A stretch of DNA of 64,000 nt from an uncultured Gammaproteobacteria bacterium (GTDB lineage Bacteria > Pseudomonadota > Gammaproteobacteria > Xanthomonadales > Xanthomonadaceae). A program made the translations under genes and the position numbers. The stretch's first letter is position 1; each line of letters opens with the position of its first letter. This document shows positions 20,240-60,128 of the stretch, in pieces. The notes beneath the pieces were generated by a model that worked only from the letters and a program-made list of their open reading frames with translations, was not told the origin of the DNA and searched no databases. The stretch spans positions 7,174-71,173 of the forward strand of contig CAZXGS010000008.1 in the NCBI GenBank assembly GCA_964640525.1, written 5' to 3'.

Positions 20240-21424
20240 TCAGCGATTGGCGAGGATCGCGGCCAGCGACTCGGCCTTGCCGATCAAAAACCCCTGCGCG
20301 TAACCACAGCCGATGCGGCCTAGCGCTGCCAACTGCTCGGCGGTCTCCACGCCCTCGACCACGAGATCGGCGCCGATCGCCTGCCCCATGGCCACGATCG
20401 CCCGCACGATCTGCATCGCCCGCTCCGACGCCAGCATCTCGCGCACGAAGGCCTGATCGATCTTGATCGCGTCCACCGCCAGCCGATGCAACTGTGCCAG
20501 GTGCGCGTAGCGGGTGCCGAAGTCGTCCAGCGACACGCCGATGCCCTGGGCATGGCAGTCGTCAATGACCTGTGCGACCTGCGCGGGGTCCAGAGCCTGG
20601 CTCTCGGTGATCTCGACCTTGATGCAGCCCAGCGGCAGTTGCAGTGCATCGCGTCGGGCGACGATCCCGCGAATCAGACCCGGCGCGGCCAACTGGCGCG
20701 CGGAGACGTTCACCGCCACGAACGGCATCGGATCATCGCGCAGCGCATCCAGCGCGGCGCAGGCGGCGTCGAAGACGTACTCCCCGACCGGCATGATCAA
20801 CGAGGTCTCCTCGGCAAGGCGAATGAACTCTTCCGGGTCCACCGCACCGAGGCCAGGGTGATTCCATCGCACCAATGCCTCGTACCCGACGATGCGGCCG
20901 CTGGCAATTTCCAGGATCGGTTGGTAGCAGACTTCCAGCTTGCGCTCCAGCAGGGCCTCGCGCAGCTCGTCCTCGAGCCGGAACTTGCTGGAACCGTGGT
21001 CGTCGCGGTCGGGCGCGTCCTCGAGCATCTCGGGCTCGACGGCGCCGCGAAGCATCCGCAGCATCCGTCGGTTCCGCTTCATCTGGCCTTCCAGCACCAT
21101 CCGCAGGATCGGATCGGCGCCGGTCAGGCGCTCGCGCAACTGGTCGCTGTCGATCGCCAGGACGTCGGCCGCATCGGACACCACCACGGCGTCCACGAGG
21201 TAGTTGGTCCTTTCGATTGCCGCCATGTCGCCGACCAGATCACCGCGTCCCAAGCGGGCCAGCACAACCGCTTTGGGCGTACCGCCAGCACGCCCCGGAC
21301 GGGTTCCGCGCAGCTCGACGATCCCGCCCTCGATCAGGTATCCGGCCCTGGGCTGTTCCCCGTGGCGAAACAGGTAATCACCGCCCTTCAGGCTGAGCCG
21401 CGGCACGATCGATCTCCATCGCAC
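20240..21424 (-). CDS. cyclic-nucleotide-binding-like domain plus EAL-domain c-di-GMP phosphodiesterase
   Basis: 394 aa with a GTG start at 21424. N-terminal CAP-type beta-roll (GGDYLFRHGEQPRAGYLIEGGIVEL...GRGDLVGDMAAI). The EAL domain has intact-looking EALVRW, NVSARQ, EITES, DDFGT, KIDQAF and EGVET motifs. Confidence 0.85.
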   Translation of the reverse strand: MRWRSIVPRLSLKGGDYLFRHGEQPRAGYLIEGGIVELRGTRPGRAGGTPKAVVLARLGRGDLVGDMAAIERTNYLVDAVVVSDAADVLAIDSDQLRERLTGADPILRMVLEGQMKRNRRMLRMLRGAVEPEMLEDAPDRDDHGSSKFRLEDELREALLERKLEVCYQPILEIASGRIVGYEALVRWNHPGLGAVDPEEFIRLAEETSLIMPVGEYVFDAACAALDALRDDPMPFVAVNVSARQLAAPGLIRGIVARRDALQLPLGCIKVEITESQALDPAQVAQVIDDCHAQGIGVSLDDFGTRYAHLAQLHRLAVDAIKIDQAFVREMLASERAMQIVRAIVAMGQAIGADLVVEGVETAEQLAALGRIGCGYAQGFLIGKAESLAAILANR

Positions 21425-21485: not shown

Positions 21486-23777
21486 TCAGTTGCGCTGCTT
21501 GACGTCGAGGATCTTCGGCGTCACGAACACCAGCAACTCGGCCTTGCTCGCGGTGTGGTTCTTGCTGCGGAACAGGAAGCCGAGCCCCGGCAGGTCACCC
21601 AGGAACGGCACCTTGTTCATGTCGTCACGCTTGCTGAACTCGTACACGCCACCGACCACGACGGTCTGCCCGGAATCGACCAGCGCCGCAGTGGTGATCT
21701 GCCGCTTGGTGATCTGCGGCACGTCGCCGTAACTTGGCACCGTGATGAAGCCTTTCAGCTCGTCCTTGGTGATGTCCAGGTCCATGTACACGCGGTTGTC
21801 GTGCGTGATGGTCGGGGTCACCTTCAGCTCCAGCACGACGTCCTTGAACTGGACGTTGGCCTGCGCACCACCGCCGCCACTACCGCCGCTGGTGGTGACG
21901 TAGCCGATTTCGTCACCCTGCTTGATGTCGGCCATCCGCTGGTTGCTGGTGATGACACGCGGGTTGGAGATCACCTCGCCGCGTCCCTCGGTCTGCAAGG
22001 CGGTCAATTCCAGATCCAGCGCATGACTGCCGCGCAGAATACTGAAGGCCATGCTCCCGGCGGCGCCTGTGATCGGCAGGTTCACGTTCAAGCCATGGGT
22101 GATGCTTGGCACGGTGATGGTCGGCAGCGCCACCGCAGCGATCTGCGCCGGGGTCGGATTGGGACCCAGTGCCGCAATCGCAGCGTTGTACGTCGCGATC
22201 GCTGATGCGTTTGCGACGTCGGCGCTCGTCACCGAACCCTGAGTCGCCAGGGTATTGCCGATGCTGTCACCCCAACTGGTAATGGTCTTGGAGCCGTCGT
22301 TGAAGCCGCTGATCCCAAGCCTGGCGCCAATTTCACGCGCAAAGTCCTCGTTGGCGATGACGATCCGCGCCTCGATCAGCACCTGGTCGACCGGGCGATC
22401 CAGCACCGTGACCAGCTTCTTGATGTCATCCACCTTGCGCGGCAGATCGGTCAACAGCAGTGTGTTGCTGCGCTTGTCGAAACTGACACTGCCACGGTCG
22501 GACAGGAAACCACGCTGCTGGTTGCCGGATGAATTGCCGCCCGAATTGTTGGACTTGGCGCCGTCCGTCAGCAGCTTGGCGATGTCTTCGGCACTGCCGT
22601 AGTTGATCGGAATGTACTCGGTGACCGTAGGCGCGCGCTCCTCGATCGCAATGCGCGCATCCTCCAGCGACTGCTCGTAGTCGGCCAGTTCCTTCTGCGG
22701 CGCCACCCACACCACGCCGCCGTCACGCCGCTTGTCCAGTCCCTTGGCGCGCAGCACCACATCCAGCGCCTGATCCCACGGCACGTTGATCAGCCGCAGC
22801 GTCACGTTGCCGGTGACCGAGTCTGCCGCCACCACGTTCAGGCCGGACTCCTCGGCGATCAACTGCAGCACGGTGCGCACCGGCACGTCCTGGAAGTTGA
22901 AGGTCGCCGGCTTGCCGGTGTACTTCTTCGCCGTACCCGCTCCGATGCGTCCGGAATCGGCCACGGCACCGCCCGCATCAACCTTCTTCGGGTTGACCTC
23001 GATGACGTACTCGTTGCCCATCTGGTAGGCGGAGGCGCTGAAGCCACCGCCGGTGTCGATCACCAGTCGCGTACCGCCCGCCTGCTCGCGCGCATCGATC
23101 GACCGCACCGGGGTCGCGAAATCGCTCACGTCCAAGTGCTTGGCCAGATTGGCCGGGATCATCGCGTTGCTGACATCGATCATCACCCGCGAGCCTTCCA
23201 CGTGCATGTCGGCGGCAGCGCCATCACCGCTGAACTTGAGCACGATCCGACCTGCGCCGTCCTGGCCGCGACGGAAGTCCACGTTGGACACGCTCAGTGC
23301 GCCGGCGACCCGACGCGACGGATCAACGGTATTGGCCATCACCGGGCCCTTCACCTTCGCACCGGAGTCAGCCACGTTCAGGATCAGGCGATTGCCCTCG
23401 ATCCTGGACTTGTAGGCCGCCTGCCTGAACAGATCGACCATGACCCGCGTGCGACCGTTGGCCTGGGCGGCCGACAGCGTGCTTGCCGAGCCATCGCCGA
23501 TCAGAACCTTGTGCCCGGCCAAGCCGTTCTGGGTGTCGGGCAGGTCGATCGCGATCCGCGGCGGACCGTCCGTGGTGAAAACCTGCGCGTCGGCGACCGG
23601 GTGTGCGAACTTCAAGGTGATGTCCACCCCGCCTTTTGCACCGGGGGCATGGGTGACCTGCTGCAGCACATTCGACGCACAGGCGGGGAATGCACTGCTG
23701 AGCAGCCAGACGCCCAAGCCCAGCGCCGCAGTGGCGCGCGACCGGTTGATCCGGCGGGTGACTTTGTTTGCGCTCAT
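21486..23777 (-). CDS. pilQ: type IV pilus secretin PilQ
   Basis: 763 aa. Signal peptide, AMIN-like N-terminal repeats, and a C-terminal secretin domain (VPFLGDLPGLGFLFRSKNHTASKAELLVFVTPKIL). Confidence 0.95.
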   Translation of the reverse strand: MSANKVTRRINRSRATAALGLGVWLLSSAFPACASNVLQQVTHAPGAKGGVDITLKFAHPVADAQVFTTDGPPRIAIDLPDTQNGLAGHKVLIGDGSASTLSAAQANGRTRVMVDLFRQAAYKSRIEGNRLILNVADSGAKVKGPVMANTVDPSRRVAGALSVSNVDFRRGQDGAGRIVLKFSGDGAAADMHVEGSRVMIDVSNAMIPANLAKHLDVSDFATPVRSIDAREQAGGTRLVIDTGGGFSASAYQMGNEYVIEVNPKKVDAGGAVADSGRIGAGTAKKYTGKPATFNFQDVPVRTVLQLIAEESGLNVVAADSVTGNVTLRLINVPWDQALDVVLRAKGLDKRRDGGVVWVAPQKELADYEQSLEDARIAIEERAPTVTEYIPINYGSAEDIAKLLTDGAKSNNSGGNSSGNQQRGFLSDRGSVSFDKRSNTLLLTDLPRKVDDIKKLVTVLDRPVDQVLIEARIVIANEDFAREIGARLGISGFNDGSKTITSWGDSIGNTLATQGSVTSADVANASAIATYNAAIAALGPNPTPAQIAAVALPTITVPSITHGLNVNLPITGAAGSMAFSILRGSHALDLELTALQTEGRGEVISNPRVITSNQRMADIKQGDEIGYVTTSGGSGGGGAQANVQFKDVVLELKVTPTITHDNRVYMDLDITKDELKGFITVPSYGDVPQITKRQITTAALVDSGQTVVVGGVYEFSKRDDMNKVPFLGDLPGLGFLFRSKNHTASKAELLVFVTPKILDVKQRN

Positions 23778-48358: not shown

Positions 48359-49111
48359 TCAGAACGGGTTCGCGCAGGCCTTTGCGGTCTTGCCGAACAT
48401 CTCGGTCTGGATCGCCGGAGACTGCATCAGCAGGTTGGCATAGGACTGAATCGGGATGCCGCCGGCACGGTAGCAAGCCGTGCCGAAGCCGGCGTCGTTG
48501 CCCGCACCGTTCATCAACTGGGTCACCCAGCGCACCGGCCAGACGATGACCGGATCGCAGTAATTCACCCGGATGCTGAGGATGTTGGCGTCCTGGATGC
48601 TCTGCTTGGACTTCGCGCCGGGCGTGGTGCTCCGGTACAACAGCCTGGCGTTGGGAATCGCGGTGATCGGGGTGCCATTCACCAGCACGTTGTTGTTGGT
48701 CGCGAAGTCCTTGAACGAATTGGCGGTCGGGTTGAGCACGTCGATCGCCACATTGTCCAGGCCACCGATGGCGCCCAGCGTGGTCTTGGTCCAGGCGTTG
48801 ACCAGCGACGAGGTGTAGCCGGCGATATCGCGATTCATGTTCGCGGACTGGTACAGCGGCACCAGCCCCTTGATCACGCCGGCGCGGATCGAACACACGC
48901 TGCCGTTGGCAACGATGCCCTCGCGCGCGCCGGAAATCGCGGCTTGGTCGAGCGTGGTCTTGGCCATGAAGAACAGCGCGAACTGCAGGATGCCCAGGGT
49001 CAGCAACAGCAACACCGGGATCACGATGATGAACTCGGCCAGCGATTGACCGGCCATGGCGTGGCGCCTGCCCAGCCGGGGTGCCAGCGGCTGCCGCACG
49101 GACCTTTTCAT
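48359..49111 (-). CDS. TadE-like pseudopilin-type protein (250 aa)
   Basis: N-terminus GQSLAEFIIVIPVLLLLTLGILQFALFFMAKTTLDQAA matches the TadE-like signature. Last gene of the Tad-like operon. Confidence 0.75.
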   Translation of the reverse strand: MKRSVRQPLAPRLGRRHAMAGQSLAEFIIVIPVLLLLTLGILQFALFFMAKTTLDQAAISGAREGIVANGSVCSIRAGVIKGLVPLYQSANMNRDIAGYTSSLVNAWTKTTLGAIGGLDNVAIDVLNPTANSFKDFATNNNVLVNGTPITAIPNARLLYRSTTPGAKSKQSIQDANILSIRVNYCDPVIVWPVRWVTQLMNGAGNDAGFGTACYRAGGIPIQSYANLLMQSPAIQTEMFGKTAKACANPF

Positions 49112-49275
49112 GGGATGCCCTCCGTCGTTGCGCAGGTCCGCGCACGCGAACCCGATCCGACATCGCCCTTCGTTGCGCTCGCGACCCCAACGAGGCCACG
49201 CGCGACACCCGCATCACCGTCACCCGCCGCCTTGGCGTTGCTGGCCGGGCCGGCATGGACGATTCCTGCGGTCAT
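49108..49275 (-). CDS. possible small ORF (55 aa), translationally coupled on both sides
   Basis: ATGA overlaps at both ends (with the DUF192 stop and the TadE-like start). By hand count, third-position GC is about 70 percent, lower than neighbouring genes. No TM segment or recognisable motif. Confidence 0.25.
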   Translation of the reverse strand: MTAGIVHAGPASNAKAAGDGDAGVARGLVGVASATKGDVGSGSRARTCATTEGIP

Positions 49276-49628
49276 GGCACACCCGCATCGCTCACCGTCA
49301 ATTGGCGCTGCGGCGTGATGCCCGCCCGCGCGCACGCGCCGGCGGCGAACTCCACCGTCGTCCTGGCCCGCAGGCAGGCGGCCATGCGCATCGGCCGCAG
49401 CGCGCTGACCACCCGCAGCACCACGCCGGAGGCGTCGAGGAACACCACGTCGATGGCGTACCGCATGCCCACGGTGTGGACGGCGTTGCAGCGCTCCAGG
49501 TACATCGCCTCGCCCGCCGCCAGCGGCGGCCGCCACAGCAGGCCGCGCATTCGCTCCAGCGGGCCGCGCGTCACCAGCAGCCGATCCGCCACGACCTCCC
49601 CACCCGACAGCAGCCTGGCGAGTTTCAA
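49272..49628 (-). CDS. DUF192-family protein
   Basis: C-terminal part of track ORF 49272..50426. A TTG at 49628 overlaps the tadC stop. RMRGLLWRPPL...AMYLERCNAVHTVGMRYAIDVVFLDASGVV...VEFAAG fits the DUF192 pattern. Start codon uncertain. Confidence 0.6.
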   Translation of the reverse strand: MKLARLLSGGEVVADRLLVTRGPLERMRGLLWRPPLAAGEAMYLERCNAVHTVGMRYAIDVVFLDASGVVLRVVSALRPMRMAACLRARTTVEFAAGACARAGITPQRQLTVSDAGVP

Positions 49629-50503
49629 AACAACCCCTGCTCGGCAACCATCATCACGATCGGGAACGCGATCACGATGAAGGTGGTGGGAAAGATGAAC
49701 ATGACCAGCGGAAACAGCAGCTTCACCGGCGCTTCCATGGCCATCTTCTCGGCGCGCTGGAAGCGTTCGTTGCGGCGCCGCTCGGCCTGCAGGCGCAACA
49801 CCTTGCCGACGCTGGCGCCGACCTGCTCGGCCTGGATGATCGCCGAGACGAACGAGGACACCTCGGGGATCGTCAGCCGCTCGTCCATGCGCCGCAGCGC
49901 GTCGGAGCGGTTCAGGCCGGCGCGGATGTCGCGCAGGACAAGGAAGAATTCCTGCCGCAGTGCGCCCTTCGGGCCCTTCTCGATGGTCTGCGCCATCGCG
50001 TTGGTGAAGTTCAGGCCGGCTTCCATGCCGAGCACGATGTAGTCCAGGAAGATCGGCAGCTCCTTGAGGATCGACTTGTGCCGATGGGTGAAGCGCTGGT
50101 TGAGCCACATCAGCGGGTAGAACAAGCCAAGCACGACGCCGAAGGCGGTCAGCGACCACGCCATCATCGGCCCGGTCTCGCGCACGCCGACGTAGATCAG
50201 GCCGCCCAGCGCCACCGCACCGATCAGCATCACCGAGCAGAACTCCTCGGCGGTCAGCATGTAGTTGGCACCGGAGCGGGCGATCTTCACGTACACGCCC
50301 TCCAGCAGCGGCGTGGGCAGACGCGAGCCGATGTAGGTGGACACGAAGCGCACCAGCGGCCAGATCGCGCGCAGGATGCGCGGCAGCGGGTCCAGGTAGA
50401 GGCGATCCTCCTCCGGCAGCTCCCACTGCAGGCCGGCCAGCGCCCAGATCGCCAGCACGACGGTGGCGATCACCAGCAGCGAAATGAGGACGATCAGGAT
50501 CAT
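49625..50503 (-). CDS. tadC: type II secretion system F-family inner-membrane protein, TadC-like
   Basis: Track ORF 49625..51454 trimmed to ATG 50503 (MILIVLISLLV...). 292 aa, with the T2SSF-type cytoplasmic domain flanked by TM helices. ATGA overlap with tadB. Confidence 0.85.
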   Translation of the reverse strand: MILIVLISLLVIATVVLAIWALAGLQWELPEEDRLYLDPLPRILRAIWPLVRFVSTYIGSRLPTPLLEGVYVKIARSGANYMLTAEEFCSVMLIGAVALGGLIYVGVRETGPMMAWSLTAFGVVLGLFYPLMWLNQRFTHRHKSILKELPIFLDYIVLGMEAGLNFTNAMAQTIEKGPKGALRQEFFLVLRDIRAGLNRSDALRRMDERLTIPEVSSFVSAIIQAEQVGASVGKVLRLQAERRRNERFQRAEKMAMEAPVKLLFPLVMFIFPTTFIVIAFPIVMMVAEQGLF

Positions 50504-51348
50504 ACGTCGATGTTGGTGATCTTGCGGATGCCGATGAAGCCCAGGATTTCCATGATCACGATCACGCCCAGGGTCATGTATCCGGGCATGCTGGTGAACA
50601 GCGGCGCCATCTCGCGCGGTTGCAGTTGGGTCAGGACCACGATCATCAACGGCGGCAGCGAGGTCATCACCAGGCCCTGGATCTTGCCCATCGAGGTCAG
50701 GCTGCGGATCTTGCCCTCGACCTGGATGGTGCGGGTGATGGTGCCGGCCAGCGAGTCGAGCATCTCGCCGAGGTTGCCGCCGGTCTCGCGCGAGATGCGC
50801 ACGCCGGCGGTGAACAGACCCATCTCCTCGAGCGGGATGCGCTCCTCCATCTTGCCCAGCGCATCCTCGAAGCTCATCCCCATGCGCTGGTTGCGCAACA
50901 TCAACGAGAACTCCTGCGACAGCGGCGGGTGGGCTTCCTTGGCGAGGTTCTCCAGGGTGGTCATCACGCTGGCGCCGGCGCGCAGCGAACTGGCCATGAC
51001 CGCCAGCGCATCGGGCAACTGGTTGCGGAACTTGTCCATCCGGCGTTTGCGCACGAAGTTGACGATCAACTTGGGCGCGATGATGGGTACCGGCAGGCTG
51101 AGCAGGGTGAACACCATGTTGTCGGTGAACAGCCACACCAGCGCCGGCACCGCGATGAACCCGAGGAAATACACCACCGCCAGCTTGCGATAGTCCACGA
51201 ACACGAACATGTCGGCGAGGTCGCGCTCGGTCGTGCCCTTGAGCTTCTCGACCTGCTTGTCGGCGAGGTGGCCCATGAACATCAGCGCCACCCAACCGAA
51301 CAGCACCAGGGTGAGGACCACGCAGACGATGATGGCCGCGATCATCAT
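50500..51348 (-). CDS. tadB: type II secretion system F-family inner-membrane protein, TadB-like
   Basis: 282 aa. LPDALAVMASSLRAGAS...AL is a typical T2SSF motif. ATGA overlap with the ATPase gene. Confidence 0.85.
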   Translation of the reverse strand: MMIAAIIVCVVLTLVLFGWVALMFMGHLADKQVEKLKGTTERDLADMFVFVDYRKLAVVYFLGFIAVPALVWLFTDNMVFTLLSLPVPIIAPKLIVNFVRKRRMDKFRNQLPDALAVMASSLRAGASVMTTLENLAKEAHPPLSQEFSLMLRNQRMGMSFEDALGKMEERIPLEEMGLFTAGVRISRETGGNLGEMLDSLAGTITRTIQVEGKIRSLTSMGKIQGLVMTSLPPLMIVVLTQLQPREMAPLFTSMPGYMTLGVIVIMEILGFIGIRKITNIDV

Positions 51349-53030
51349 AGGTGGCGACTGCCCTTGGCGAAGAAGATCGAACGGTCGATCTCGATGCCGC
51401 GCGCACCCAGTTCCTCGTAGAACTCGGGAACCCGGCCGGTGGCGACGAACTCACCGACCACCCGGCGTTCGGAGTCGAAGCCCTGCTGCTTGAACTGGAA
51501 GATGTCCTGCAACTGGATCACCCCGTTCTCCATCCCGGTCACCTCGGTGATGTGGGTGATCTTGCGGGCGCCATCGGACATGCGGTTCTGCTGCACGATG
51601 ATGTTGATCGCCGAGGACACCTGCTGGCGGATCGCCAACACCGGCAGGTCCATGCCGGCCATCAGCACCATCACTTCCAGGCGCGCCAGGGTGTCGCGCG
51701 GCGAGTTGGCGTGCACGGTGGTCAACGAGCCGTCGTGGCCGGTGTTCATCGCCTGCAGCATGTCCAGCGCCTCGCCGCCGCGGCACTCGCCGACCACGAT
51801 GCGGTCCGGGCGCATGCGCAGGCAGTTGCGCACCAGGTCGCGAATGCTTACCGCGCCCTTGCCCTCGACATTGGCCGGCCGCGATTCCAGCGAGATCAGG
51901 TTGGTCATGCCCAGCCGCAGTTCGGCGGCGTCTTCGACCGTGATCACGCGTTCGCGGTCGGGGATGAAATTGGACAGGATGTTGAGCAGGGTGGTCTTGC
52001 CCGAGCCGGTGCCGCCGGAAATGATGACGTTGCGCCGCTGCTCCACGCACAGGCGCAGGAAGTTCATCATCTCGTGGTTGGCCGAACCGAAGTCCACGAA
52101 GTCCTTGGCCACCAGCTTGCGCCTGGCGAACTTGCGGATGGTGATGTTGGGCCCCTTGAGCGCCAGCGGCGGGATCACCGCGTTGACGCGCGAGCCGTCG
52201 CGCAGGCGGGCATCCACCATCGGCGAGCCCTCGTCGATGCGGCGGCCCAGCGGGGTGACGATGCGTTCGATCGCCGACAGCACCGCCTGGTCGCTGGAGA
52301 ACACCACCGGTGCCGGCTCCAGCCGGCCGCCACGCTCGATGAAGATCTGGTCGAAGCAGTTGACCATCACCTCGCTGATGCTCTCGTCGGCCAGCAGGAC
52401 CTCCAGCGGGCCAAGACCGATCGCCTCGTTGAGCGCGTTGCGCGCCAACTGGTTGCGATCATAGGTGCCGATCAGGCCGGGGTCCTCGTTGATGATCTCC
52501 TCGATCAGCTCACGGGTCTTGGCGCGCAGCTCGGCCTCGCTCAGCCGCGTCACGTCCAGCCGACGGAAGTCCATCCTGGCGATGATCCGGTCGTGGATCG
52601 TGCGCAGGACGGCGTATTCGCCCTGGTCGAAGGCGTTGCCGGCCGCAGGCAGCGCGTCGGCGAACGGCTCCCGTGCCGGCGTCATCACCGCGGCGGAGGG
52701 CATGGCGCTGGCGGTGGCCGCCGTGCCGCCGGCTTCCTTCTGCAATACCGCCTGGATCTTGTAGCTGCCGATTCCGACGACGTCGTCAGGCAGCAACGGG
52801 CCGTGGGTGCGCGAGATGCGGTGCGAGTTGACCGTGGTGCCGGCGCGACTGCCCTCGTCGCGCACGTAGATGCCGTCCTCCTGCACCACCAGCACCGCGT
52901 GCGTGCGGCCCACGTCCCAGCCCTGCAACACCACGAGGTTTTCCACCGACTTGCCGATCGCGCAGATCGGCGCATTGCAGTTGACCGTCTGCACCTTGCC
53001 GCGCGAGTTGGAAACAGTTACCTGGAACAT
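51345..53030 (-). CDS. cpaF: CpaF/TadA-family secretion ATPase with N-terminal FHA domain
   Basis: 561 aa. Residues 1-95 have an FHA-like pattern (IGKSVENLVVLQGWDVGRTHAVLVVQEDGIYVRDEGSRAGTTVNSHRI...DDVVGIGSYKI). Then a linker and the CpaF core: Walker A GGTGSGKTTLLN, VGECRGGEA, GHDGSLTTVHAN. Confidence 0.9.
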   Translation of the reverse strand: MFQVTVSNSRGKVQTVNCNAPICAIGKSVENLVVLQGWDVGRTHAVLVVQEDGIYVRDEGSRAGTTVNSHRISRTHGPLLPDDVVGIGSYKIQAVLQKEAGGTAATASAMPSAAVMTPAREPFADALPAAGNAFDQGEYAVLRTIHDRIIARMDFRRLDVTRLSEAELRAKTRELIEEIINEDPGLIGTYDRNQLARNALNEAIGLGPLEVLLADESISEVMVNCFDQIFIERGGRLEPAPVVFSSDQAVLSAIERIVTPLGRRIDEGSPMVDARLRDGSRVNAVIPPLALKGPNITIRKFARRKLVAKDFVDFGSANHEMMNFLRLCVEQRRNVIISGGTGSGKTTLLNILSNFIPDRERVITVEDAAELRLGMTNLISLESRPANVEGKGAVSIRDLVRNCLRMRPDRIVVGECRGGEALDMLQAMNTGHDGSLTTVHANSPRDTLARLEVMVLMAGMDLPVLAIRQQVSSAINIIVQQNRMSDGARKITHITEVTGMENGVIQLQDIFQFKQQGFDSERRVVGEFVATGRVPEFYEELGARGIEIDRSIFFAKGSRHL

Positions 53031-53119
53031 GGTTCACGCCACCGCCGGAATGTTCGATCTTCATACCACGCCGCGCTTCCGACGCAACCGTCCCCGGTGC
53101 GTCGGCGCCGACACTCCGG

Positions 53120-54817
53120 CTATCCGTGACCCGGGGATGGCGCCGCTGCGGATGGCGCCGTCGCTGCATTGGCCGTTCCGGCAGACGCCGACCCGCCGCC
53201 CGCGTTCCCGGCCGCGCGCGCAGCGGCCTGCGCCTTCACCGGCGGTGCCGGGGCCACGGGTGCCGCGGGCTTGGTCAGCGCAGGTGCCGGATGCGCGTTG
53301 CTCGCACCGGGCGCAGCCTCGGCCGGCGCAGCTTCGGCCGGCGCAGGTGCCGGTTGGGACGCCGCAGGAGCTGCGTCCGGTACCGCGCGTTCCTGTTCGG
53401 GGTGCGATCCCGGGCCGATGCCGAAGCCGGGCATCTGGGTGGACCTGCCGTACTTGCTGTCGAAGTCCTGGATGATCTGGGTGCCGCGCTGGATCAACTC
53501 GGAATTCACCGCCGAGGACGGATCGATGACCTCGGGGGTGACGAAGATGACCAGCTCCGACTTGTTGGCATTGAAGTTCTTGTCGCGGAACAGGTAACCC
53601 AGGATCGGAATGTCGCCAAGCCATGGGAACTTGCTGATCGACTTGGCACCCCCGGCCTGGACCAGGCCGGACAGCACGATGGTCTGCCCGCTCTTGACGT
53701 TGACCACCGAGGCGGTCTTGCGGGTGAGGAAACCGGGGAAGCCCTGGATGGTCACCGACGGGTCGATCTGGCTGACCTCGGTGTTGATGTCGGCCAGCAC
53801 GTTGCCGTGCGCGTCGGCGACCGGCTTGATGTCCAGATGCACGCCGTAGTCCTTGTACTCCACCGTGCTCTGGCCGAGCACGCTGGTGATCGGGATCGGG
53901 ATCTGGCCGCCGGCGAGGAAGCTGGCGGTGCCCTCGCTGCGCGTGCTGAGCTGCGGATTGGCCAGCACGTAGGCATCGCCATGCTGGGCCGCGATGTTGA
54001 TGATCGAGGACAGCGAGGTGGTGATGCCGAAATACTCTGAAAATGGCACGTGCAGCGGCAGCCCGGTGGACGCTCCGCCCGGTCCTTGGAAGGCGTTGGC
54101 AGGGTTTCCGCCCTGGGTGAGGTCGCCCTGCCGGAAATACGGATTGGTGCGCCAGTCCTTGACGATGCCCAGCGACGGCCCGGCCAGCACGTTCTGCCAG
54201 TCGATGCCGATGTTGCGCAGCGCCGACTTCTTGAAGTCCACCACCTGCACGTCCAGGTAGACCATGCGCTGCATGTCCACCGTGCCTGGATGGGTGAGGT
54301 TGACGACGTCGGGCACCGATTGCGCCACCGTCTCCACGCGCTTGTAGTCGTCGGGCGTCAGGTCGCCGGTGAGGATGACCCGGCCTGCGGTATTGGCGAC
54401 CTTCAGGCCAGGCACCGAAGCCAGGGCGCTGGCCAGACCCTCTGCCGCCTCGCGTGCATTCACGGGGGTGACCAGGATGTTGAACGCCTGCACGCCGCCG
54501 TTCTTGTGCCACAACAGCATGTTGGTGTTGCCTGCGGCCTGGCCGATCAGGATCAGGTCGTCGCCGGCCTGCTGCACCGACACCAGCTTGCCGTTGCCAA
54601 GCGCCACGCGCTTGACGTCGCGCAGGTGCAGGACCTTGACTTCGCCGGCGTACAGGGTCAACTGGCTTGCGGCCGTTTCACCCTCGGCGGTGACGGCGCG
54701 CGGCGCGCGGGCGGTGGCCTGGGTCGGTACCCGTGCCGGCGCGGGAAGTGCCGCCAGCAGCGTCGTTGCAGCCGTCGCCACAACCCATCGAGCGGATTGG
54801 TTCATCGTCAAGATCAT
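53120..54817 (-). CDS. cpaC: secretin, CpaC/RcpA family, with Ala/Pro-rich C-terminal tail
   Basis: 565 aa. Signal peptide, N-domains, and the secretin core (KFPWLGDIPILGYLFRDKNFNANKSELVIFVTPEVI). About 110 aa of A/P-rich low complexity at the C-terminus. Alternative start at ATG 54805. Confidence 0.9.
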   Translation of the reverse strand: MILTMNQSARWVVATAATTLLAALPAPARVPTQATARAPRAVTAEGETAASQLTLYAGEVKVLHLRDVKRVALGNGKLVSVQQAGDDLILIGQAAGNTNMLLWHKNGGVQAFNILVTPVNAREAAEGLASALASVPGLKVANTAGRVILTGDLTPDDYKRVETVAQSVPDVVNLTHPGTVDMQRMVYLDVQVVDFKKSALRNIGIDWQNVLAGPSLGIVKDWRTNPYFRQGDLTQGGNPANAFQGPGGASTGLPLHVPFSEYFGITTSLSSIINIAAQHGDAYVLANPQLSTRSEGTASFLAGGQIPIPITSVLGQSTVEYKDYGVHLDIKPVADAHGNVLADINTEVSQIDPSVTIQGFPGFLTRKTASVVNVKSGQTIVLSGLVQAGGAKSISKFPWLGDIPILGYLFRDKNFNANKSELVIFVTPEVIDPSSAVNSELIQRGTQIIQDFDSKYGRSTQMPGFGIGPGSHPEQERAVPDAAPAASQPAPAPAEAAPAEAAPGASNAHPAPALTKPAAPVAPAPPVKAQAAARAAGNAGGGSASAGTANAATAPSAAAPSPGHG

Positions 54818-54841
54818 CCTGTGAATTCGGTCGTGGAAGCG

Positions 54842-55867
54842 TCAGTGGCCGCCCATCCCGCCGTTGCCGGGGGACGGAGGTGCGGGCTGGCTGTTCTGCA
54901 ACAGAGCGCGCAGCAGCGCCTTGGCGGCCTGCTGGGTCTGCTCGGGCGGTAGCGGCTTGTCCGGCTGCGCCTGCGGCGCGGCGACCTTGGGCGCGGTGCC
55001 CGAGTACATCACCTGCTGGCTGACCGAGCCGCCGGAACCGATGATGAACTGGATCGCGCCGGTGCCGCTGTTGGCCTGGACATTGTCGGCGCCCAACCTG
55101 GTCAGCAGGTCCACGCTGTTGACCTTGGGCATGTCCTTGGCGCCGACCACGGTGTCGGTGCCGGGCGCCAGCGCGATCCGCAGCGTCCCCAACTCGTTGG
55201 CCAGCAACAGCTCGGAGGCTTGATCGGCGGTCAACTGCAGGGTGATCGTGCCGAACTGGCCGGCCAGGTTCTGCCCGGGCTTGGGCATGCCCTCGCTGAA
55301 GCCGAGGTCGTTGCCGGTCGCCAGCACCAGTGCCCGATGCAGCACCGGCAGCAGATCCTGCACATCGCCGCCGCCTTCGTCGCTGCGACTGGTGGACAGC
55401 AGGATGTCGATGTGGTCGCCCGGGCGCAGCAGGCCAGACAGCGCATTGACCTCGTCCACCGTGATCGTCACCGCGCGCGTGCCGGCGGGCAGCAGCGAAG
55501 CGAAGTCGGACACCTCCAGCTTGTCGAAGTAGCTCGACAGCATCGGCTTTCCCGCCACCACCGGCCGCCGCAGCGCGCGCCCGGAGAACTGCGCGAAGTC
55601 CTTCATCAGGATCGTGTCCGGATACAGCAAGTCTTTCGGAAACGAGCGTTCGGACATGTTTTCGTTGCTGACCACGGTGCCCGGCGGCAGGTCGGTGCTG
55701 GGCACGACCACATCCACCATGCCCTCGGTCATCCTCTGCTGCATCTCTGCCTGGTACTGCGACTTGGTCTGATGCAGGTAGCGCACGATCAGCGTCACCG
55801 ACACGATCGCCAGCACCATGGCGATCAGCAACATCCCGACGTATCTGTTTACTTGAGGTATGCGCAT
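54842..55867 (-). CDS. cpaB: Flp pilus assembly protein CpaB/RcpC (SAF domain)
   Basis: 341 aa. N-terminal TM anchor, an SAF-like region (VVVPSTDLPPGTVV), and an RcpC-like region (TRAVTITVDE...GLLRPGDHIDILL). Confidence 0.85.
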   Translation of the reverse strand: MRIPQVNRYVGMLLIAMVLAIVSVTLIVRYLHQTKSQYQAEMQQRMTEGMVDVVVPSTDLPPGTVVSNENMSERSFPKDLLYPDTILMKDFAQFSGRALRRPVVAGKPMLSSYFDKLEVSDFASLLPAGTRAVTITVDEVNALSGLLRPGDHIDILLSTSRSDEGGGDVQDLLPVLHRALVLATGNDLGFSEGMPKPGQNLAGQFGTITLQLTADQASELLLANELGTLRIALAPGTDTVVGAKDMPKVNSVDLLTRLGADNVQANSGTGAIQFIIGSGGSVSQQVMYSGTAPKVAAPQAQPDKPLPPEQTQQAAKALLRALLQNSQPAPPSPGNGGMGGH

Positions 55868-55876
55868 CTTCGAGGC

Positions 55877-56104
55877 TTATGGCAGGGAAATCAGGAAGGT
55901 GAAGTTCATCCACCACGTATGCAACACTTCGATCAGTTTTTCGATCACCGGCTTCGGCGGCCCGCCAACTCCGGGGATCGGAAGGACCGCAAGCAAAAAG
56001 ATGACCGCAAGCGCGGCCACGATGTATTCGGCCATGGCCTGACCGTGCTGGCGCGATCGGATGCCCAGCCGCGGGGCACGGAGCGCGTGCAGCCGCGGAC
56101 TCAT
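55877..56104 (-). CDS. small Flp-like (type IVc) prepilin-like protein, 75 aa
   Basis: C-terminal part of track ORF 55877..56755. The ATG at 56104 overlaps the upstream stop (ATGA). RQHGQAMAEYIVAALAVIFLLAV contains a G/xxxxEY-type Flp processing motif. Confidence 0.65.
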   Translation of the reverse strand: MSPRLHALRAPRLGIRSRQHGQAMAEYIVAALAVIFLLAVLPIPGVGGPPKPVIEKLIEVLHTWWMNFTFLISLP

Positions 56105-56853
56105 TGCGACATCACCGTGAGGGTGATCGACGCGCCCGATTTCAACGGCGCCACCACGATCCCGGCGTGGCTGCGGCCCTTGCTGAACATCAGCATCGAC
56201 GGGCCGCTGCCGCGCGCGGAGGGCATGTCCTGACTCCAGCCGAACGAGGGCATGTTCTGCGTGTACCAGTCGACCACGGCACCGGGCAGGTTGGCGGTGT
56301 AGAGCAGCCACGTGTCGCCGTTGCGGCCGCCGTCCTGGCTGACCATGTGGGTCAGCGGTCGCGCATCGCCTGGCGCGGGAAAATCCAGCACGCCGGAACC
56401 GAAGTCCTGTCCCAGCGTGCCGATGCCCAGCAGGGCGGTCGAGCCACCCTTGCCATCCGCGCGGATCTGCACGGTGTAATAGCACTGGCCTTCCTTGTGC
56501 CCGACCACGTCCCAGGGTCCGAGGGTGTCTTCCACGAACAGCGGCCGATTCGGCTGGCCCTTCCACAGATCCTTGTAGAACTGGGCGAAAGCGCCCGGGG
56601 ACAACCTGCTGTTGGCCGCCACGATGCTCATCAGGCGACCGTTGATGATGATGCGTGGCGCGATCAGTTGCTGGGCGGTATTCGCCGGCGTCTTCAGGCT
56701 CGCGCAGGTCACCTGCGGCACCGCGGTCGCCGCGGCGACTCCCGCCATGCCCCATGCCAGCACCAGCGCCAGACCGGCGCAGCGCAAGGCTGCACGATGC
56801 ACGGGAAAGGCACCGGATAGAGTGGACCGCATGCGCTTCATGGTCGACATCAT
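56101..56853 (-). CDS. secreted hypothetical protein (250 aa), Tad-locus specific
   Basis: C-terminal part of track ORF 56101..57549. The ATG at 56853 overlaps the upstream stop. Signal-like LRCAGLALVLAWGMAGVAAATA. I recognise no family. Confidence 0.65.
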   Translation of the reverse strand: MMSTMKRMRSTLSGAFPVHRAALRCAGLALVLAWGMAGVAAATAVPQVTCASLKTPANTAQQLIAPRIIINGRLMSIVAANSRLSPGAFAQFYKDLWKGQPNRPLFVEDTLGPWDVVGHKEGQCYYTVQIRADGKGGSTALLGIGTLGQDFGSGVLDFPAPGDARPLTHMVSQDGGRNGDTWLLYTANLPGAVVDWYTQNMPSFGWSQDMPSARGSGPSMLMFSKGRSHAGIVVAPLKSGASITLTVMSQ

Positions 56854-58193
56854 CCTGTGGTCACCAGCGAACTGCCCGGCTTGGCCGGGTCCGGCACCAC
56901 CGTGACCGAGGTGGTGGTGCCATTCGGGGTCGACAGCACACCGTCGACCTCGACGGCATTTTGTTCCTGGCCAGCGGCACAGGTGACGCCGCCGGCGCAG
57001 ATGTAAGTCACGCTGGACACCGTGAAGCCGGAGCTGGCCATCTGCCCGGAATAGGTCTGCCAGGCGGTGTACGGATTGCCGGACAGCGACACCGAACTGC
57101 TCGTGGTCATCCCGCCGGATGGATTCAGGGTCACCGTGACCACCGAGGATCCCCGCTGGAACACCAGCACCACCGATCCGTCCGCCTGCTTGGTGTTGCT
57201 GACCACGGAAAATCCCATCGCCGCGTACTGGGCGATGACCTGGTCGATTTGCGATTGCGACACGCCGGTTGTGCCGCCACCGGGCGGGTTGTAGTTCTTC
57301 AGCCGATCCGCCGGCACCGAACCGGCATCGGTCACATCGATGTAGCCGAAGCCCACCGGACCGCCGCCCTGGCTGCCCAGGTCGGGAATCACGAACCCGA
57401 TGATGCTCTGGAAATCGCTGACCAGCTTGCCGATCGACGCCAATGCCTTGGGTCGGGTGGCGCAATCGTTGTCCAGCGTCCCGAGGATCGACGTGGGCAC
57501 CGCCGTGGCCGCCTGGCAGCGCTCGTATTTTTCGTCCGCGGCGCTCCATCCGTCCGCGAGCAGGACGTCGCGGGCGGAGAAGGTCAAGGATTTTCCATCG
57601 ATCAGGTTGACGTAGTCAGTCGGACCGATCGGCATCTTCGGTTTCACCGCGACATTGGCGGTGTAGTACTTGTCCATGGTCAGCACGAACCCTGCGCCCA
57701 CCAAGTCCCGCAGCGGCTTCAGGGTGACATCCAGCACCTTGTCGGTGGCAAAGCTGCCCGGCTCGGCATTGCCTTGCGCGGTGGCCGTGACCTGGTTCGC
57801 CTTGCCGACCAGTTGGTTCCCGCCCTGATCCACCCACAGCGGCAGGTTGCCGAAGTTCGCCAGCGAATCGTTCTGCTGCTGCGTGACGCCGGTGAATCCG
57901 CTGCTGAAGAAGCGCATCTTGACCGCATTGGCGAGCTGCGCGTCGGTCAGCTTGGCCATCTTGGCATCGCGCTCGTAGCCCGAATTGCTGTACACCGTGC
58001 GCTCGAAGGCGGTGTAGCGCGCCGCCTGCAGGGTCGCCGAGCGCATGGTGATGAACTTGCCGACCAGCACGATCATCAGGAAGAACGGCGCCAGAAAAAA
58101 CAGCGCCACGATGATCGACTCGGCCATCGACTGCCCGCGCATGCCGCGCGGTGGCACGAATGACCCGTCCCGCGGGCGCAGCCGAGCCCTCAT
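56850..58193 (-). CDS. large TadE-like N-terminal domain protein (447 aa)
   Basis: Track ORF 56850..58505 trimmed to ATG 58193 (ATGA overlap with the upstream gene). GQSMAESIIVALFFLAPFFLMIVLVGKFITMRSATLQAARYTAFE is TadE-like. About 380 aa of unassigned C-terminal sequence follows. Confidence 0.7.
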   Translation of the reverse strand: MRARLRPRDGSFVPPRGMRGQSMAESIIVALFFLAPFFLMIVLVGKFITMRSATLQAARYTAFERTVYSNSGYERDAKMAKLTDAQLANAVKMRFFSSGFTGVTQQQNDSLANFGNLPLWVDQGGNQLVGKANQVTATAQGNAEPGSFATDKVLDVTLKPLRDLVGAGFVLTMDKYYTANVAVKPKMPIGPTDYVNLIDGKSLTFSARDVLLADGWSAADEKYERCQAATAVPTSILGTLDNDCATRPKALASIGKLVSDFQSIIGFVIPDLGSQGGGPVGFGYIDVTDAGSVPADRLKNYNPPGGGTTGVSQSQIDQVIAQYAAMGFSVVSNTKQADGSVVLVFQRGSSVVTVTLNPSGGMTTSSSVSLSGNPYTAWQTYSGQMASSGFTVSSVTYICAGGVTCAAGQEQNAVEVDGVLSTPNGTTTSVTVVPDPAKPGSSLVTTG

Positions 58194-59611
58194 GGCCCCA
58201 CCCCTGCCGCCTGCGCCCCATCCGCCGCCACCACCACCGGCAGCGAGGTCTTGACCAGGTGCGCTTCCCAGTATGGATTGAAGAAATTGCCGTACACCAG
58301 GCTGCCGCCCAGGCTCCACTGCCCGTCCGGACGCACGAAATAGGCGTTGGCCGAGGACGCGACCTGGACCATCGCCGAGGCCTCGGAGTCGTACACGTCC
58401 AACTTGCCACCGGCGATCGGCTTGCCGCTGTCGTGCATCTGCTTGGTGGTGTCGACGGTATCGGAGGTGCGCTCGACGAACAGGGTGATGGTGGGCGATT
58501 CCCAAGCCGGGCTGGTCAGGTCACGCAGGCCCATGTACTGGCGCAGACCATTGAAATCCCCGACCTTCCACTGCTGTCCGGCATTGCCTCCGGCGATGCC
58601 TTGCCCGCTGGACGGCGGCACCGGGATGAAGATGGGAATCGGGATCGGGATGACGGCGTCGATGACACACACGCCCACCCCGAAATAATTGCCGTTGTCC
58701 GAGGCCTTCCACTGGGTGTTGTCGTTTGACAGGTTGGCCGAGCCATTCCAGTGGCCAAAGAAGGTGATCCCGCCGACGCCATCCGGACAACTGCCGAACG
58801 CGGTCAGCAGCGATTCGAACGGGGGCATCTCCGAACCACCGCGCGCCCGCGTCCAGTTGTCCAGGCTGGCCATGGTCACGTTGTGGAAGCGGTTTTTGGG
58901 ATCGTCCTGGTTCTTGTATGGCGTGTAGCGCTTGTGGAACTTGAGCAACTGGACTTCCGAGGCGCCCAACGCCGCCACGCCGGCAACGCTGAGCTTGGCC
59001 TGCGGATCATTGTCCTTGACGACCTCGTTGGCGACCGCCGGCACTTCGGCCGCGGTTCCGTACAGGTACGCGGCGGAGGCGGTGCTCAACACGCTCTCCA
59101 GTCCGTTGAGGAAGGTGACCACCGGCCCGGTGGTGCCGTCCAGGGCATTGAACACCGTGCTGGAGATGTTCTGGTAGATCTTGTTGGAAGTCTTGCCAGG
59201 CTCGCCGGGGCTGAAGATCGACAGACCGAACTTGATCATGTCGTCGGTGCCGTTGGACGAGTACTTGCCGCACTTGTTCTGGGTGAAGATCAGGCAGTAG
59301 AACCGCGACCACGACGCCAGACTGACCATCTGCGCGATCGCCACCTGGTTGGCGACCATGGCACGGTTGGAATAGGCGGTGAAGTTGTATGCCCGCGCCA
59401 TCACCTGCGCGCTGGAATAGGAAGCCGAATCGGCAGTGTCCTGCAGGCGGGTGCGGACGAGGTTCATCCGCCCGACGTTGTAGACCAGCAGGCCGGCCAG
59501 CAGCAGGGCGAGCGCCAGGATCGCAACCAGAATGATGACCTGCCCGGACTGGCGCCGACGCGCCCCGGTCTCGGGTTGCCTGCGATGGAATGTGGCGGTG
59601 CCCCCCAGCAC
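58190..59611 (-). CDS. TadG-like (Flp pilus-assembly TadE/G-like N-terminal domain) protein, 473 aa
   Basis: Track ORF 58190..59749. A GTG at 59611, preceded by AGGAGG, lies downstream of the flp terminator. RRRQSGQVIILVAILALALLLAGLLVYNVGRMNLVRTRLQDTADSA fits the TadG N-terminal signature. Confidence 0.7.
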   Translation of the reverse strand: MLGGTATFHRRQPETGARRRQSGQVIILVAILALALLLAGLLVYNVGRMNLVRTRLQDTADSASYSSAQVMARAYNFTAYSNRAMVANQVAIAQMVSLASWSRFYCLIFTQNKCGKYSSNGTDDMIKFGLSIFSPGEPGKTSNKIYQNISSTVFNALDGTTGPVVTFLNGLESVLSTASAAYLYGTAAEVPAVANEVVKDNDPQAKLSVAGVAALGASEVQLLKFHKRYTPYKNQDDPKNRFHNVTMASLDNWTRARGGSEMPPFESLLTAFGSCPDGVGGITFFGHWNGSANLSNDNTQWKASDNGNYFGVGVCVIDAVIPIPIPIFIPVPPSSGQGIAGGNAGQQWKVGDFNGLRQYMGLRDLTSPAWESPTITLFVERTSDTVDTTKQMHDSGKPIAGGKLDVYDSEASAMVQVASSANAYFVRPDGQWSLGGSLVYGNFFNPYWEAHLVKTSLPVVVAADGAQAAGVGP

Positions 59612-59747
59612 GTTGCCTCCTGCCAGCGTTGAATCCCCGACGGCCTTCCGCGTCCCTGCCCCCCGGTCCGCCGCGATCACCCGCAAACAGCCGGATTCGA
59701 CTGCCTTTCCACCCCGCGAGCGGCGAGAAATTGACCCGCCATCACTC

Positions 59748-59788
59748 AAAAAACCTTCCCCGCGCCTGGCATCAGGCCGCGGGGAAGG
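59748..59788 (-). terminator. strong rho-independent terminator immediately after the flp pilin gene
   Basis: Perfect 11-bp stem ccttccccgcg (59754-59764) / cgcggggaagg (59778-59788), 13-nt loop, then TTTTTT on the minus strand (59748-59753). Confidence 0.85.
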
Positions 59789-59816
59789 CGATCCACACTG
59801 TCCTTGACCGTATCGA

Positions 59817-60128
59817 TCAGCCGCCCGTCTGGCTGGCGTCGGCCGCGTTGGACTTGTAGTTCTTCAGGTTGTACTGGTTGCTGGCCTCGACGTTGGCCTT
59901 GCTGGCCGCCGACGCGGCGGCGTTGTTGCCGGCGATACCGCCCTTGCCGGCCAACTGGCTGGTGATGGAGGCCATCTGGCCGCGCACCGTCTTGCCGAAG
60001 AACGAATACACCGCGATCGCGGCGATCGCGACCAGAGCGACGATGATGATGTACTCGGTCATGCCCTGGCCGATCTGGCCGAGACGGAAACCGCGCTTGC
60101 CCAGCGTGCGTGGAGCCTGCATGTTCAT
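59817..60128 (-). CDS. flp: Flp-family type IVc prepilin (major pilin candidate), 103 aa
   Basis: MNMQAPRTLGKRGFRLGQIGQG/MTEYIIIVALVAIAAIAVYSFFG carries the Flp G/xxxEY motif and hydrophobic helix. RBS GAGG. First gene of the locus. Confidence 0.85.
   Translation of the reverse strand: MNMQAPRTLGKRGFRLGQIGQGMTEYIIIVALVAIAAIAVYSFFGKTVRGQMASITSQLAGKGGIAGNNAAASAASKANVEASNQYNLKNYKSNAADASQTGG

Follow-up and report, generated by a model that had tools for sequence, protein, structure and literature searches.

A non-canonical FHA domain on the CpaF/TadA motor of a Tad pilus operon as a candidate stand-in for TadZ

What is understood of the positioning of Tad pilus machines, and of the engagement of their single bifunctional motor, comes only from TadZ/CpaE in a few model organisms. 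The stretch of DNA studied here, 64,000 nucleotides of contig CAZXGS010000008.1 from an uncultured gammaproteobacterium (the window), raises this question in another form, as the motor ATPase encoded in its Tad/Flp pilus operon (51345-53030, minus strand) carries an FHA domain at its N-terminus, and no TadZ/CpaE was found in the window. In this study, we found that the FHA domain belongs to a clade in which the phosphothreonine-contacting residues are systematically replaced, and that FHA-bearing CpaF loci and TadZ/CpaE-bearing CpaF loci are mutually exclusive in our sample. Our results suggest that the FHA domain may be a tethered docking module that takes the place of TadZ.

The open reading frame (ORF) has the coordinates given in a preliminary description of this DNA and encodes a protein of 561 amino acids (aa). 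Its GC content at third codon positions (0.92) matches that of genuine genes in this window of about 68% GC. The exact sequence of the protein was not on record, and close homologues were used instead. The layout of the gene is as follows.

51345-53030, minus strand: FHA-CpaF (TadA) gene with the class III CpaF architecture (Pfam FHA and T2SSE; 44% identity to CpaF structures)
52740-53030, minus strand: FHA domain, residues 1-97, of the non-canonical type called GW-type below (Pfam, AlphaFold2, Foldseek, clade-wide motif states)
52626-52739, minus strand: disordered Ala-rich linker, residues 98-135 (local confidence score pLDDT about 30; 34% Ala)
51348-52625, minus strand: CpaF core, residues 136-561, consisting of three-helix bundle, N-terminal domain and ATPase domain (T2SSE, TIGR03819, Foldseek)
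about 51993-52019, minus strand: Walker A motif GGTGSGKTT of the CpaF core (catalytic motif invariant in the alignment)

The preliminary description had recognised an FHA pattern in the first 95 or so residues and proposed a check against the Pfam profile. The check gave a significant match of PF00498 (FHA) to residues 25-88 (E=1.4e-10, 41.9 bits against a curated cut-off of 20.7), and PF16697, the FHA-like cytoplasmic domain of the type III secretion protein YscD, was borderline for the same protein (33.9 bits against a cut-off of 33.2). In a full-length AlphaFold2 (AF2) model made from an alignment of 75 sequences, with an overall pTM of 0.58, residues 1-97 form a beta-sandwich with pLDDT above 90. 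The N-terminal extension is thus folded and not disordered, disorder being the outcome that had been named as speaking against the FHA proposal. FHA structures were not among the matches listed by Foldseek for the full-length model because the ATPase core dominated them, and a domain-only model was therefore made. This model (pLDDT 93.7, pTM 0.85) matched the solved FHA domains of GarA/OdhI, Ki67, FhaA, ArnA and EmbR with TM-scores of 0.72-0.82 and root-mean-square deviations of 1.8-2.8 Å. A gene-calling artefact was ruled out, as M1 and the start MFxIxV are conserved from residue 1 in 75 homologues.

The linker is Ala-rich as had been described, but it is 38 aa long instead of about 60, within a family range of 20-65 aa; in the full-length model, the low pLDDT of about 30 applies to residues 99-133. 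After it, the full-length model shows a helical bundle from residue 136 and then the ATPase core, which is as complete as the preliminary description had it: PF00437 (T2SSE) matches residues 205-482 (E=2e-61), and the nearest PDB matches of the full model are the cryo-electron microscopy and crystal structures of Caulobacter crescentus CpaF (9e24, 8rjf and 8rkd; 44% identity, E=1e-43), with FlaI at only 22% identity. The top NCBIfam model was TIGR03819 (TadA) with 331.8 bits, under its cut-off of 373. GGTGSGKTT, EDAAEL, GECRGGEA and TGHDGSLTTVHAN, the set of Walker A, Asp box, Walker B and His box, all fall in invariant alignment columns. With the T2SSE core motifs, CpaF as closest relative and its location in a Tad operon, the protein is the motor ATPase (CpaF/TadA) of a Tad/Flp pilus operon.

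The FHA-CpaF fusion itself is not new, and the novelty implied for it at the outset was overrated. CpaF orthologues have been sorted into three architectures, of which class III has the order FHA-IDR-3HB-NTD-CAD (FHA, disordered region, three-helix bundle, N-terminal domain, ATPase domain), is mostly betaproteobacterial and is exemplified by E3HIW0 of Achromobacter xylosoxidans; its FHA was described generically as a phosphothreonine binder (PMC12019362, Nat Commun 2025). The window protein has the FHA domain, the disordered region and the 3HB-NTD-CAD core in identical order, with a core 44% identical to C. crescentus CpaF, and belongs to this class. Our protein search gave at least 8000 matches; among those listed, PF00498 and PF00437 were present in all but 4 of 120 homologues (56-88% identity), and the hosts include Rhodanobacter, Metallibacterium, Acidithiobacillus, Acidiferrobacter, Herminiimonas and many metagenome-assembled genomes (MAGs). 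The window protein differs from that published description in the degenerate phosphothreonine triad of its clade, the lack of TadZ/CpaE at the loci of the clade and its host, a Rhodanobacter-like gammaproteobacterium.

The FHA substitutions reported in the preliminary description, IGKS, VGRTHA and SRAGTT, were confirmed by alignment to ArnA, in which GR becomes GK, SRKHA becomes GRTHA and STNGT becomes SRAGT. They are conserved across the clade, which we examined in an alignment of 75 homologues with 56-88% identity to the window protein, and are therefore no peculiarity of one sequence. The motif states of the window FHA are G26-K27, G37-W38, G41-R42-x-H44, A63-G64-T65 and N68. The canonical Arg of the 'GR' motif between beta3 and beta4, a phosphate contact, is replaced by Lys27 in all 75 members and is Arg in none. 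At the canonical Ser of 'SxxH' between beta4 and beta5, likewise a phosphate contact, the window has Gly41, and the clade has Gly in 33 members, Ala in 27, Gln in 12 and Ser in 3. The Asn of 'NG' between beta6 and beta7, which contacts the peptide backbone, is Ala63 in the window and Asn in 0 of 75 members, and the structural His44 is retained in 74 of 75. On the same loops as the canonical site, W38, N31, G37 and C18 are invariant in the clade. The mean column entropy is 1.16 bits in the peptide-binding loops versus 1.71 bits in the rest of the FHA domain, and it reaches 2.87 bits in the essentially unconstrained linker versus 0.76 bits in the core. A vestigial FHA was ruled out by nine invariant positions and by binding-face loops that are more conserved than the scaffold. 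These patterns suggest that the FHA of this clade keeps a functional binding face whose chemistry is probably no longer that of a classical phosphothreonine reader, and that phosphothreonine binding may have been lost.

This state is not general, as a broader set of 50 FHA-CpaF representatives clustered at 50% identity showed. Canonical-looking GR/S[RK]xH/NGT motifs were found in 19 of the 50, and when the window protein is counted with them, the Arg at the 'GR' position is present in 37 of 51 sequences. The Ser and Asn are lost in a subgroup of the representatives, the GW-type, which is monophyletic among the genome loci and mostly gamma- and betaproteobacterial. In GW-type FHA domains, replacement of the binding residues is systematic and yet the binding face is under strong constraint, and we advise caution in annotating them as phosphothreonine readers. 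The clade also conserves a pair of cysteines, C18 (75/75) and C23 (65/75), encoded at 52962-52979 of the window and located at the end of beta2 and in beta3, which is unusual for a cytoplasmic FHA domain; the pair might serve in packing, metal binding or redox chemistry.

The other half of the question concerns TadZ. A CpaE/TadZ-type ParA/MinD ATPase was found nowhere in the 64-kb window by the ATPase part of a CpaE hidden Markov model (HMM) or by the regular expression KGGxGK[ST] in six frames, and the arrangement of a canonical Tad locus, in which a TadZ/CpaE gene adjoins the ATPase gene, is absent. To place this in context, 80 CpaF loci were taken from one genome per species with 10-kb flanks, and all ORFs were scanned with three local HMMs for the CpaF core, FHA and CpaE/TadZ. 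The CpaE HMM was derived from 22 ORFs directly upstream of cpaF, and a seed checked in Pfam had Response_reg plus AAA_31/ParA/CbiA, the TadZ architecture. The CpaE scan covered 84 loci; among the evaluable ones, none had both FHA and CpaE, 17 had FHA without CpaE, 57 had CpaE without FHA and 3 had neither (Fisher p=2e-14, no phylogenetic correction). In nine of the 57 CpaE-positive loci, CpaF itself begins with a TadZ ATPase domain, in fusion proteins of about 720 aa that were checked in Pfam. The same operon as in the window was found in three further Pfam-annotated GW-type loci (L084-L086), from Metallibacterium, a 2.8-Mb contig of the Joint Genome Institute and a betaproteobacterial MAG. 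In these and in L001 (Rhodanobacter) and L003 (a MAG), which share this operon, Pfam detected no AAA_31/CbiA/ParA, Pkinase or PP2C domain within 10 kb. As L001 and L003 were already among the 17, only L084-L086 were added, and TadZ/CpaE is encoded within 10 kb in 0 of 20 evaluable FHA-CpaF loci versus 57 of 60 FHA-less CpaF loci.

The protein families point the same way. Of the 150 best-matching representatives (clusters at 50% identity) from an exhaustive search, 56 are fused to FHA, 47 are fused to TadZ and none to both. In a rough neighbour-joining tree of the core, GW-type FHA, canonical-FHA and TadZ-fused (TadZA) CpaFs are neighbours, and the same tethered N-terminal position holds either TadZ or FHA. 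It had been proposed in the preliminary description that the FHA module may replace TadZ, and the exclusivity of the two across loci, together with the fused TadZ at the same position, therefore lends this idea comparative support; functional substitution would be a further step.

The TadZ-TadA fusions are of interest in their own right. They are about 700-740 aa long, with an N-terminal ParA/MinD domain and no receiver-like domain, and their distribution reaches far beyond the one Bdellovibrio case of a 2026 preprint.

TadZ-TadA fusions among the loci: L012, L014, L016, L017, L018, L022, L024, L029 and L062
TadZ-TadA fusions among the cluster representatives: P0145, P0151, P0153 and others

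We propose that the FHA domain on its flexible linker would act as a tethered protein-protein docking or recruitment module that is independent of phosphorylation. Its task would be to deliver the ATPase hexamer to a positional landmark or to the TadB/TadC platform, and it would thereby fill the role of the separate TadZ/CpaE in canonical Tad systems, or of the fused TadZ in TadZA. For such a module in the TadZ role, with phospho-independence as the probable mode in the GW-type clade, the comparative patterns give about an even chance. Several points that weigh against this reading hold our confidence at that level. In the core tree, the CpaFs with an FHA form a cluster, and the Fisher p value therefore overstates independence; as few as one or two evolutionary events may underlie the association of FHA with a missing TadZ. 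The 80 loci are those most similar to the query and form a biased sample. The absence of TadZ/CpaE applies to the 64-kb window and the 10-kb flanks, and TadZ may be encoded elsewhere. Lys27 could still contact phosphate. Moreover, the cytoplasmic parts of TadB, TadC and CpaB in GW-type loci showed no conserved Thr or acidic partner motif, only generic T2SSF/RcpC conservation.

A broader possibility, to which we give somewhat less than an even chance, is that GW-type FHA-CpaF marks a widespread TadZ-independent Tad subtype of gamma- and betaproteobacteria, in which a phospho-independent FHA took over the docking and positioning tasks of TadZ. If this is true, one position on the ATPase has undergone a module swap between separate TadZ, fused TadZ and FHA, and type IV filament motors can be placed and activated in a second way that differs in mechanism. 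The operon family with FHA on the motor and no TadZ found nearby is large, and its hosts include Rhodanobacter, Metallibacterium, Acidithiobacillus, Thauera, Castellaniella, Herminiimonas and many MAGs. In such bacteria, the FHA domain would be a defined, deletable handle on ATPase recruitment if its link to TadZ is functional. The comparative signal against TadZ and the remodelling of the phosphothreonine site give a directly testable hypothesis.

A docking module has to be weighed against canonical phospho-signalling, in which a Hanks-type Ser/Thr kinase would phosphorylate a threonine of a Tad component or of the CpaF linker for the FHA to read, and pilus assembly would be switched on by kinase and phosphatase activity. 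Type VI secretion has an analogous switch in Fha1/PpkA/PppA. The FHA fold is present and the profile was passed, His44, Gly26, Thr65 and Asn68 are kept, Lys27 is still positively charged, and the linker holds Thr residues including one TP site. Furthermore, other FHA-CpaF lineages are fully canonical (the 19 of 50 representatives; L019, L048 and L051), and Hanks-kinase-like ORFs lie within 10 kb of L048, which has the canonical motif, and L025, which is partly canonical. However, the contact residues for phosphate and peptide backbone are replaced throughout the clade of the window protein (Arg 0/75, Asn 0/75, Ser 3/75), and its linker is not conserved. A search for Hanks-type kinases and PP2C phosphatases had been suggested for the genome, and was made here for the window and the locus flanks. 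PROSITE-type regular expressions found no signature of either in any of the six frames of the window, and among about 15 GW-type loci, a single one has a kinase-like ORF in its 10-kb flanks. A batch Pfam scan of 35 other window genes gave the best 25 of 76 families, which alone cannot exclude a weak kinase match; the six-frame regular expressions were added to it. The preliminary description had left the choice between a phospho-dependent and a phospho-independent input open. With an invariant Lys, Ser changed to Gly or Ala, Asn in no member and no kinase signatures in the window, the phospho-independent input is favoured, and we consider phospho-signalling through this FHA quite improbable.

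The FHA might instead fold back on the CpaF hexamer or on neighbouring subunits, where it would gate the ATPase, bias the switch between extension and retraction or stabilise the hexamer without any external partner, and the absence of TadZ would be a coincidence. A flexible tether of 20-65 aa suits intramolecular docking. Pilus extension and retraction are reported to be impaired in C. crescentus when the disordered N-terminal region of CpaF is truncated (PMC12019362), so on that account the N-terminus of CpaF can tune motor function. Such autoregulation nevertheless leaves the mutual exclusivity of FHA with separate or fused TadZ unexplained, and the full-length AF2 model, with an overall pTM of 0.58 and a linker pLDDT of about 30, does not place the FHA confidently against the core; we regard this explanation as unlikely. 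It is also conceivable that TadZ/CpaE is encoded elsewhere in these genomes and that the FHA is an unrelated extra input, for example of second-messenger or two-component signals. Our analysis covers 64 kb of the window genome and, for the other genomes, 10 kb on either side of the locus. A scattered arrangement of Tad genes is known from Bdellovibrio and the Kil system, and two-component or cyclic nucleotide (cNMP)-related genes adjoin some GW-type operons. On the other hand, 57 of the 60 FHA-less loci have TadZ/CpaE beside cpaF or as part of it, so the linkage is normally tight. TadZ/CpaE is missing from all 20 evaluable FHA-bearing loci, and the GW-type operon is otherwise complete and syntenic. 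We give an unlinked TadZ only a small probability.

Several known systems resemble the docking arrangement that we favour. KilF, the ATPase of the Kil prey-killing system of Myxococcus xanthus, has an N-terminal FHA fusion, was described by the authors as the single ATPase and is recruited dynamically to prey-contact sites (PMC8460266, eLife 2021). The window protein shares with KilF the design of a Tad ATPase with an N-terminal FHA. However, Kil has several FHA proteins, split gene clusters and a short secretin without N0, whereas the window has a single contiguous, ordinary Tad operon and a 565-aa secretin with an N-terminal pilus domain, and the FHA HMM found no further FHA ORF in the window. 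The Kil-like loci L019, L048 and L051 likewise differ from the window in having canonical GR/SRxH/NGT motifs, extra multi-FHA proteins and a second ATPase.

In Bdellovibrio bacteriovorus TadZA, binding to the polarity hub RomR requires the TadZ part with its linker, and these suffice for it (bioRxiv 10.64898/2026.07.08.737194). Like the window protein, TadZA has an N-terminal module on a flexible linker and the same core, there is no separate TadZ, and the two are neighbours in the tree; the module of TadZA is a ParA/MinD ATPase domain with RomR as partner, whereas that of the window protein is an FHA. The binding residues of the FHA were not analysed in PMC12019362 or PMC8460266, and CpaE/TadZ is nowhere named in PMC12019362. 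In the literature searched, no paper tests the FHA of CpaF or ties it to a missing TadZ/CpaE; neither the clade-wide changes at the phosphothreonine site nor the comparative signal against TadZ appears in the searchable literature.

FHA domains that serve as docking modules have precedents. The best structural matches of the window FHA are GarA/OdhI (PDB 6i2p, 6i2r and 4qcj; TM-scores 0.75-0.82). GarA binds phosphothreonine-dependent and phospho-independent partners through one FHA surface, and this sets a precedent for ligands without phosphate on the canonical face. GarA differs in that it keeps the canonical Arg, Ser and Asn and is a free-standing metabolic regulator, and its identity to the window FHA is only 21-23%. 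The cytoplasmic domain of YscD/PrgH (PF16697) and the N-terminal FHA domains of EssC in type VIIb secretion lack the phosphothreonine residues and are structural docking modules, and those of EssC are likewise fused to the N-terminus of a motor ATPase. These are unrelated machines, and the YscD domain sits in a membrane ring protein and not in the ATPase.

The operon around the FHA-CpaF gene is contiguous on the minus strand (48359-60128) and is transcribed from a Flp-type pilin to TadE. Its other genes are listed here in the order of transcription.

59817-60128, minus strand: candidate Flp-type major pilin with motif GQGMTEYI (regular expression; weak Flp_Fap match; orthologues of 42-70% identity in GW-type loci)
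58190-59560, minus strand: TadG-like protein with Tad domain (Pfam Tad PF13400, 43 bits)
56850-58193, minus strand: conserved protein of about 447 aa with pseudopilin-like N-terminus GQSMAESIIV (translation; no Pfam family)
56101-56853, minus strand: conserved protein of about 240 aa with signal peptide (translation; GW-type orthologues, in which PF27226 matches weakly)
55877-56104, minus strand: small Flp-like (minor) pilin of about 75 aa with motif GQAMAEYI (regular expression, translation)
54842-55867, minus strand: cpaB/rcpC (Pfam RcpC, 84 bits, and SAF)
53120-54817, minus strand: cpaC/rcpA secretin, 565 aa, directly upstream of cpaF (Pfam Secretin, 141.8 bits, and T2SS-T3SS_pil_N)
50500-51348, minus strand: tadB, T2SSF platform protein (Pfam T2SSF, 66 bits; its start overlaps the cpaF stop by 4 nucleotides)
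49625-50503, minus strand: tadC, T2SSF platform protein (Pfam T2SSF, 68 bits)
49272-49640, minus strand: DUF192 gene (Pfam DUF192, 49.5 bits; L003 orthologue with 76% identity by tblastn)
48359-49111, minus strand: tadE-like pseudopilin gene (Pfam TadE, 49.5 bits)

Neither cpaD nor cpaE lies between the secretin gene and cpaF or elsewhere in the Tad operon. A prepilin peptidase gene (CpaA/TadV) was not found in or beside the operon in the window, L001, L003 and L084-L086, and the two Flp-type prepilins of this operon type would therefore be processed by an enzyme encoded elsewhere. In Bdellovibrio, prepilin processing is done by the type IVa pilus peptidase PilD (bioRxiv 10.64898/2026.07.08.737194). 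The three genes at 56850-58193, 56101-56853 and 55877-56104 (minus strand) are GW-type-specific: they have no significant Pfam match, and blastp gave no matches to them in the FHA-less loci sampled. Orthologues of the small Flp-like pilin, 70-76 aa long, occur in L001, L003 and L084-L086. These closest relatives also have a TPR (TadD-like) gene between DUF192 and tadE, which is absent from the window, where about 180 bp (49111-49290) separate the two genes and tblastn found no match to it anywhere.

A LuxR-type response regulator and a 7TMR-DISM sensor kinase adjoin some GW-type operons (Rhodanobacter, Metallibacterium), and two cNMP-binding proteins and a nucleotide cyclase adjoin another. 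Such neighbours, which are not conserved in the window, could feed transcriptional or second-messenger signals into these operons.

Regulator genes beside GW-type operons: L001, 15564-19496; L084, 15221-17868; L085, 1-2181 and 15582-16511

Large proteins with one or two FHA domains are also encoded at L015, L018, L019, L025, L043, L048 and L051, and a second, divergent CpaF-like ATPase at L019, L025, L048 and L051. L018 is a TadZA fusion; the CpaF FHA is canonical or partly canonical in the other six, fully so in L019, L048 and L051, and these loci, from Myxococcota and 'Deltaproteobacteria' MAGs, look similar to the Myxococcus Kil system. Some CpaF-like proteins are giants of 821-1605 aa with 2-4 stretches of CpaF core (P0121-P0126, P0129, P0131 and P0142), which could be tandem ATPase fusions or artefacts of assembly or gene calling.

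The window holds a further pilus region. A protein with cNMP-binding and EAL (cyclic di-GMP phosphodiesterase) domains is encoded at 20243-21424 on the minus strand, directly downstream of pilQ, the type IVa pilus secretin gene (21489-23777), and PilM and PilO domains were detected elsewhere in the window. Together with the Tad operon, this gives the window two different type IV filament systems.

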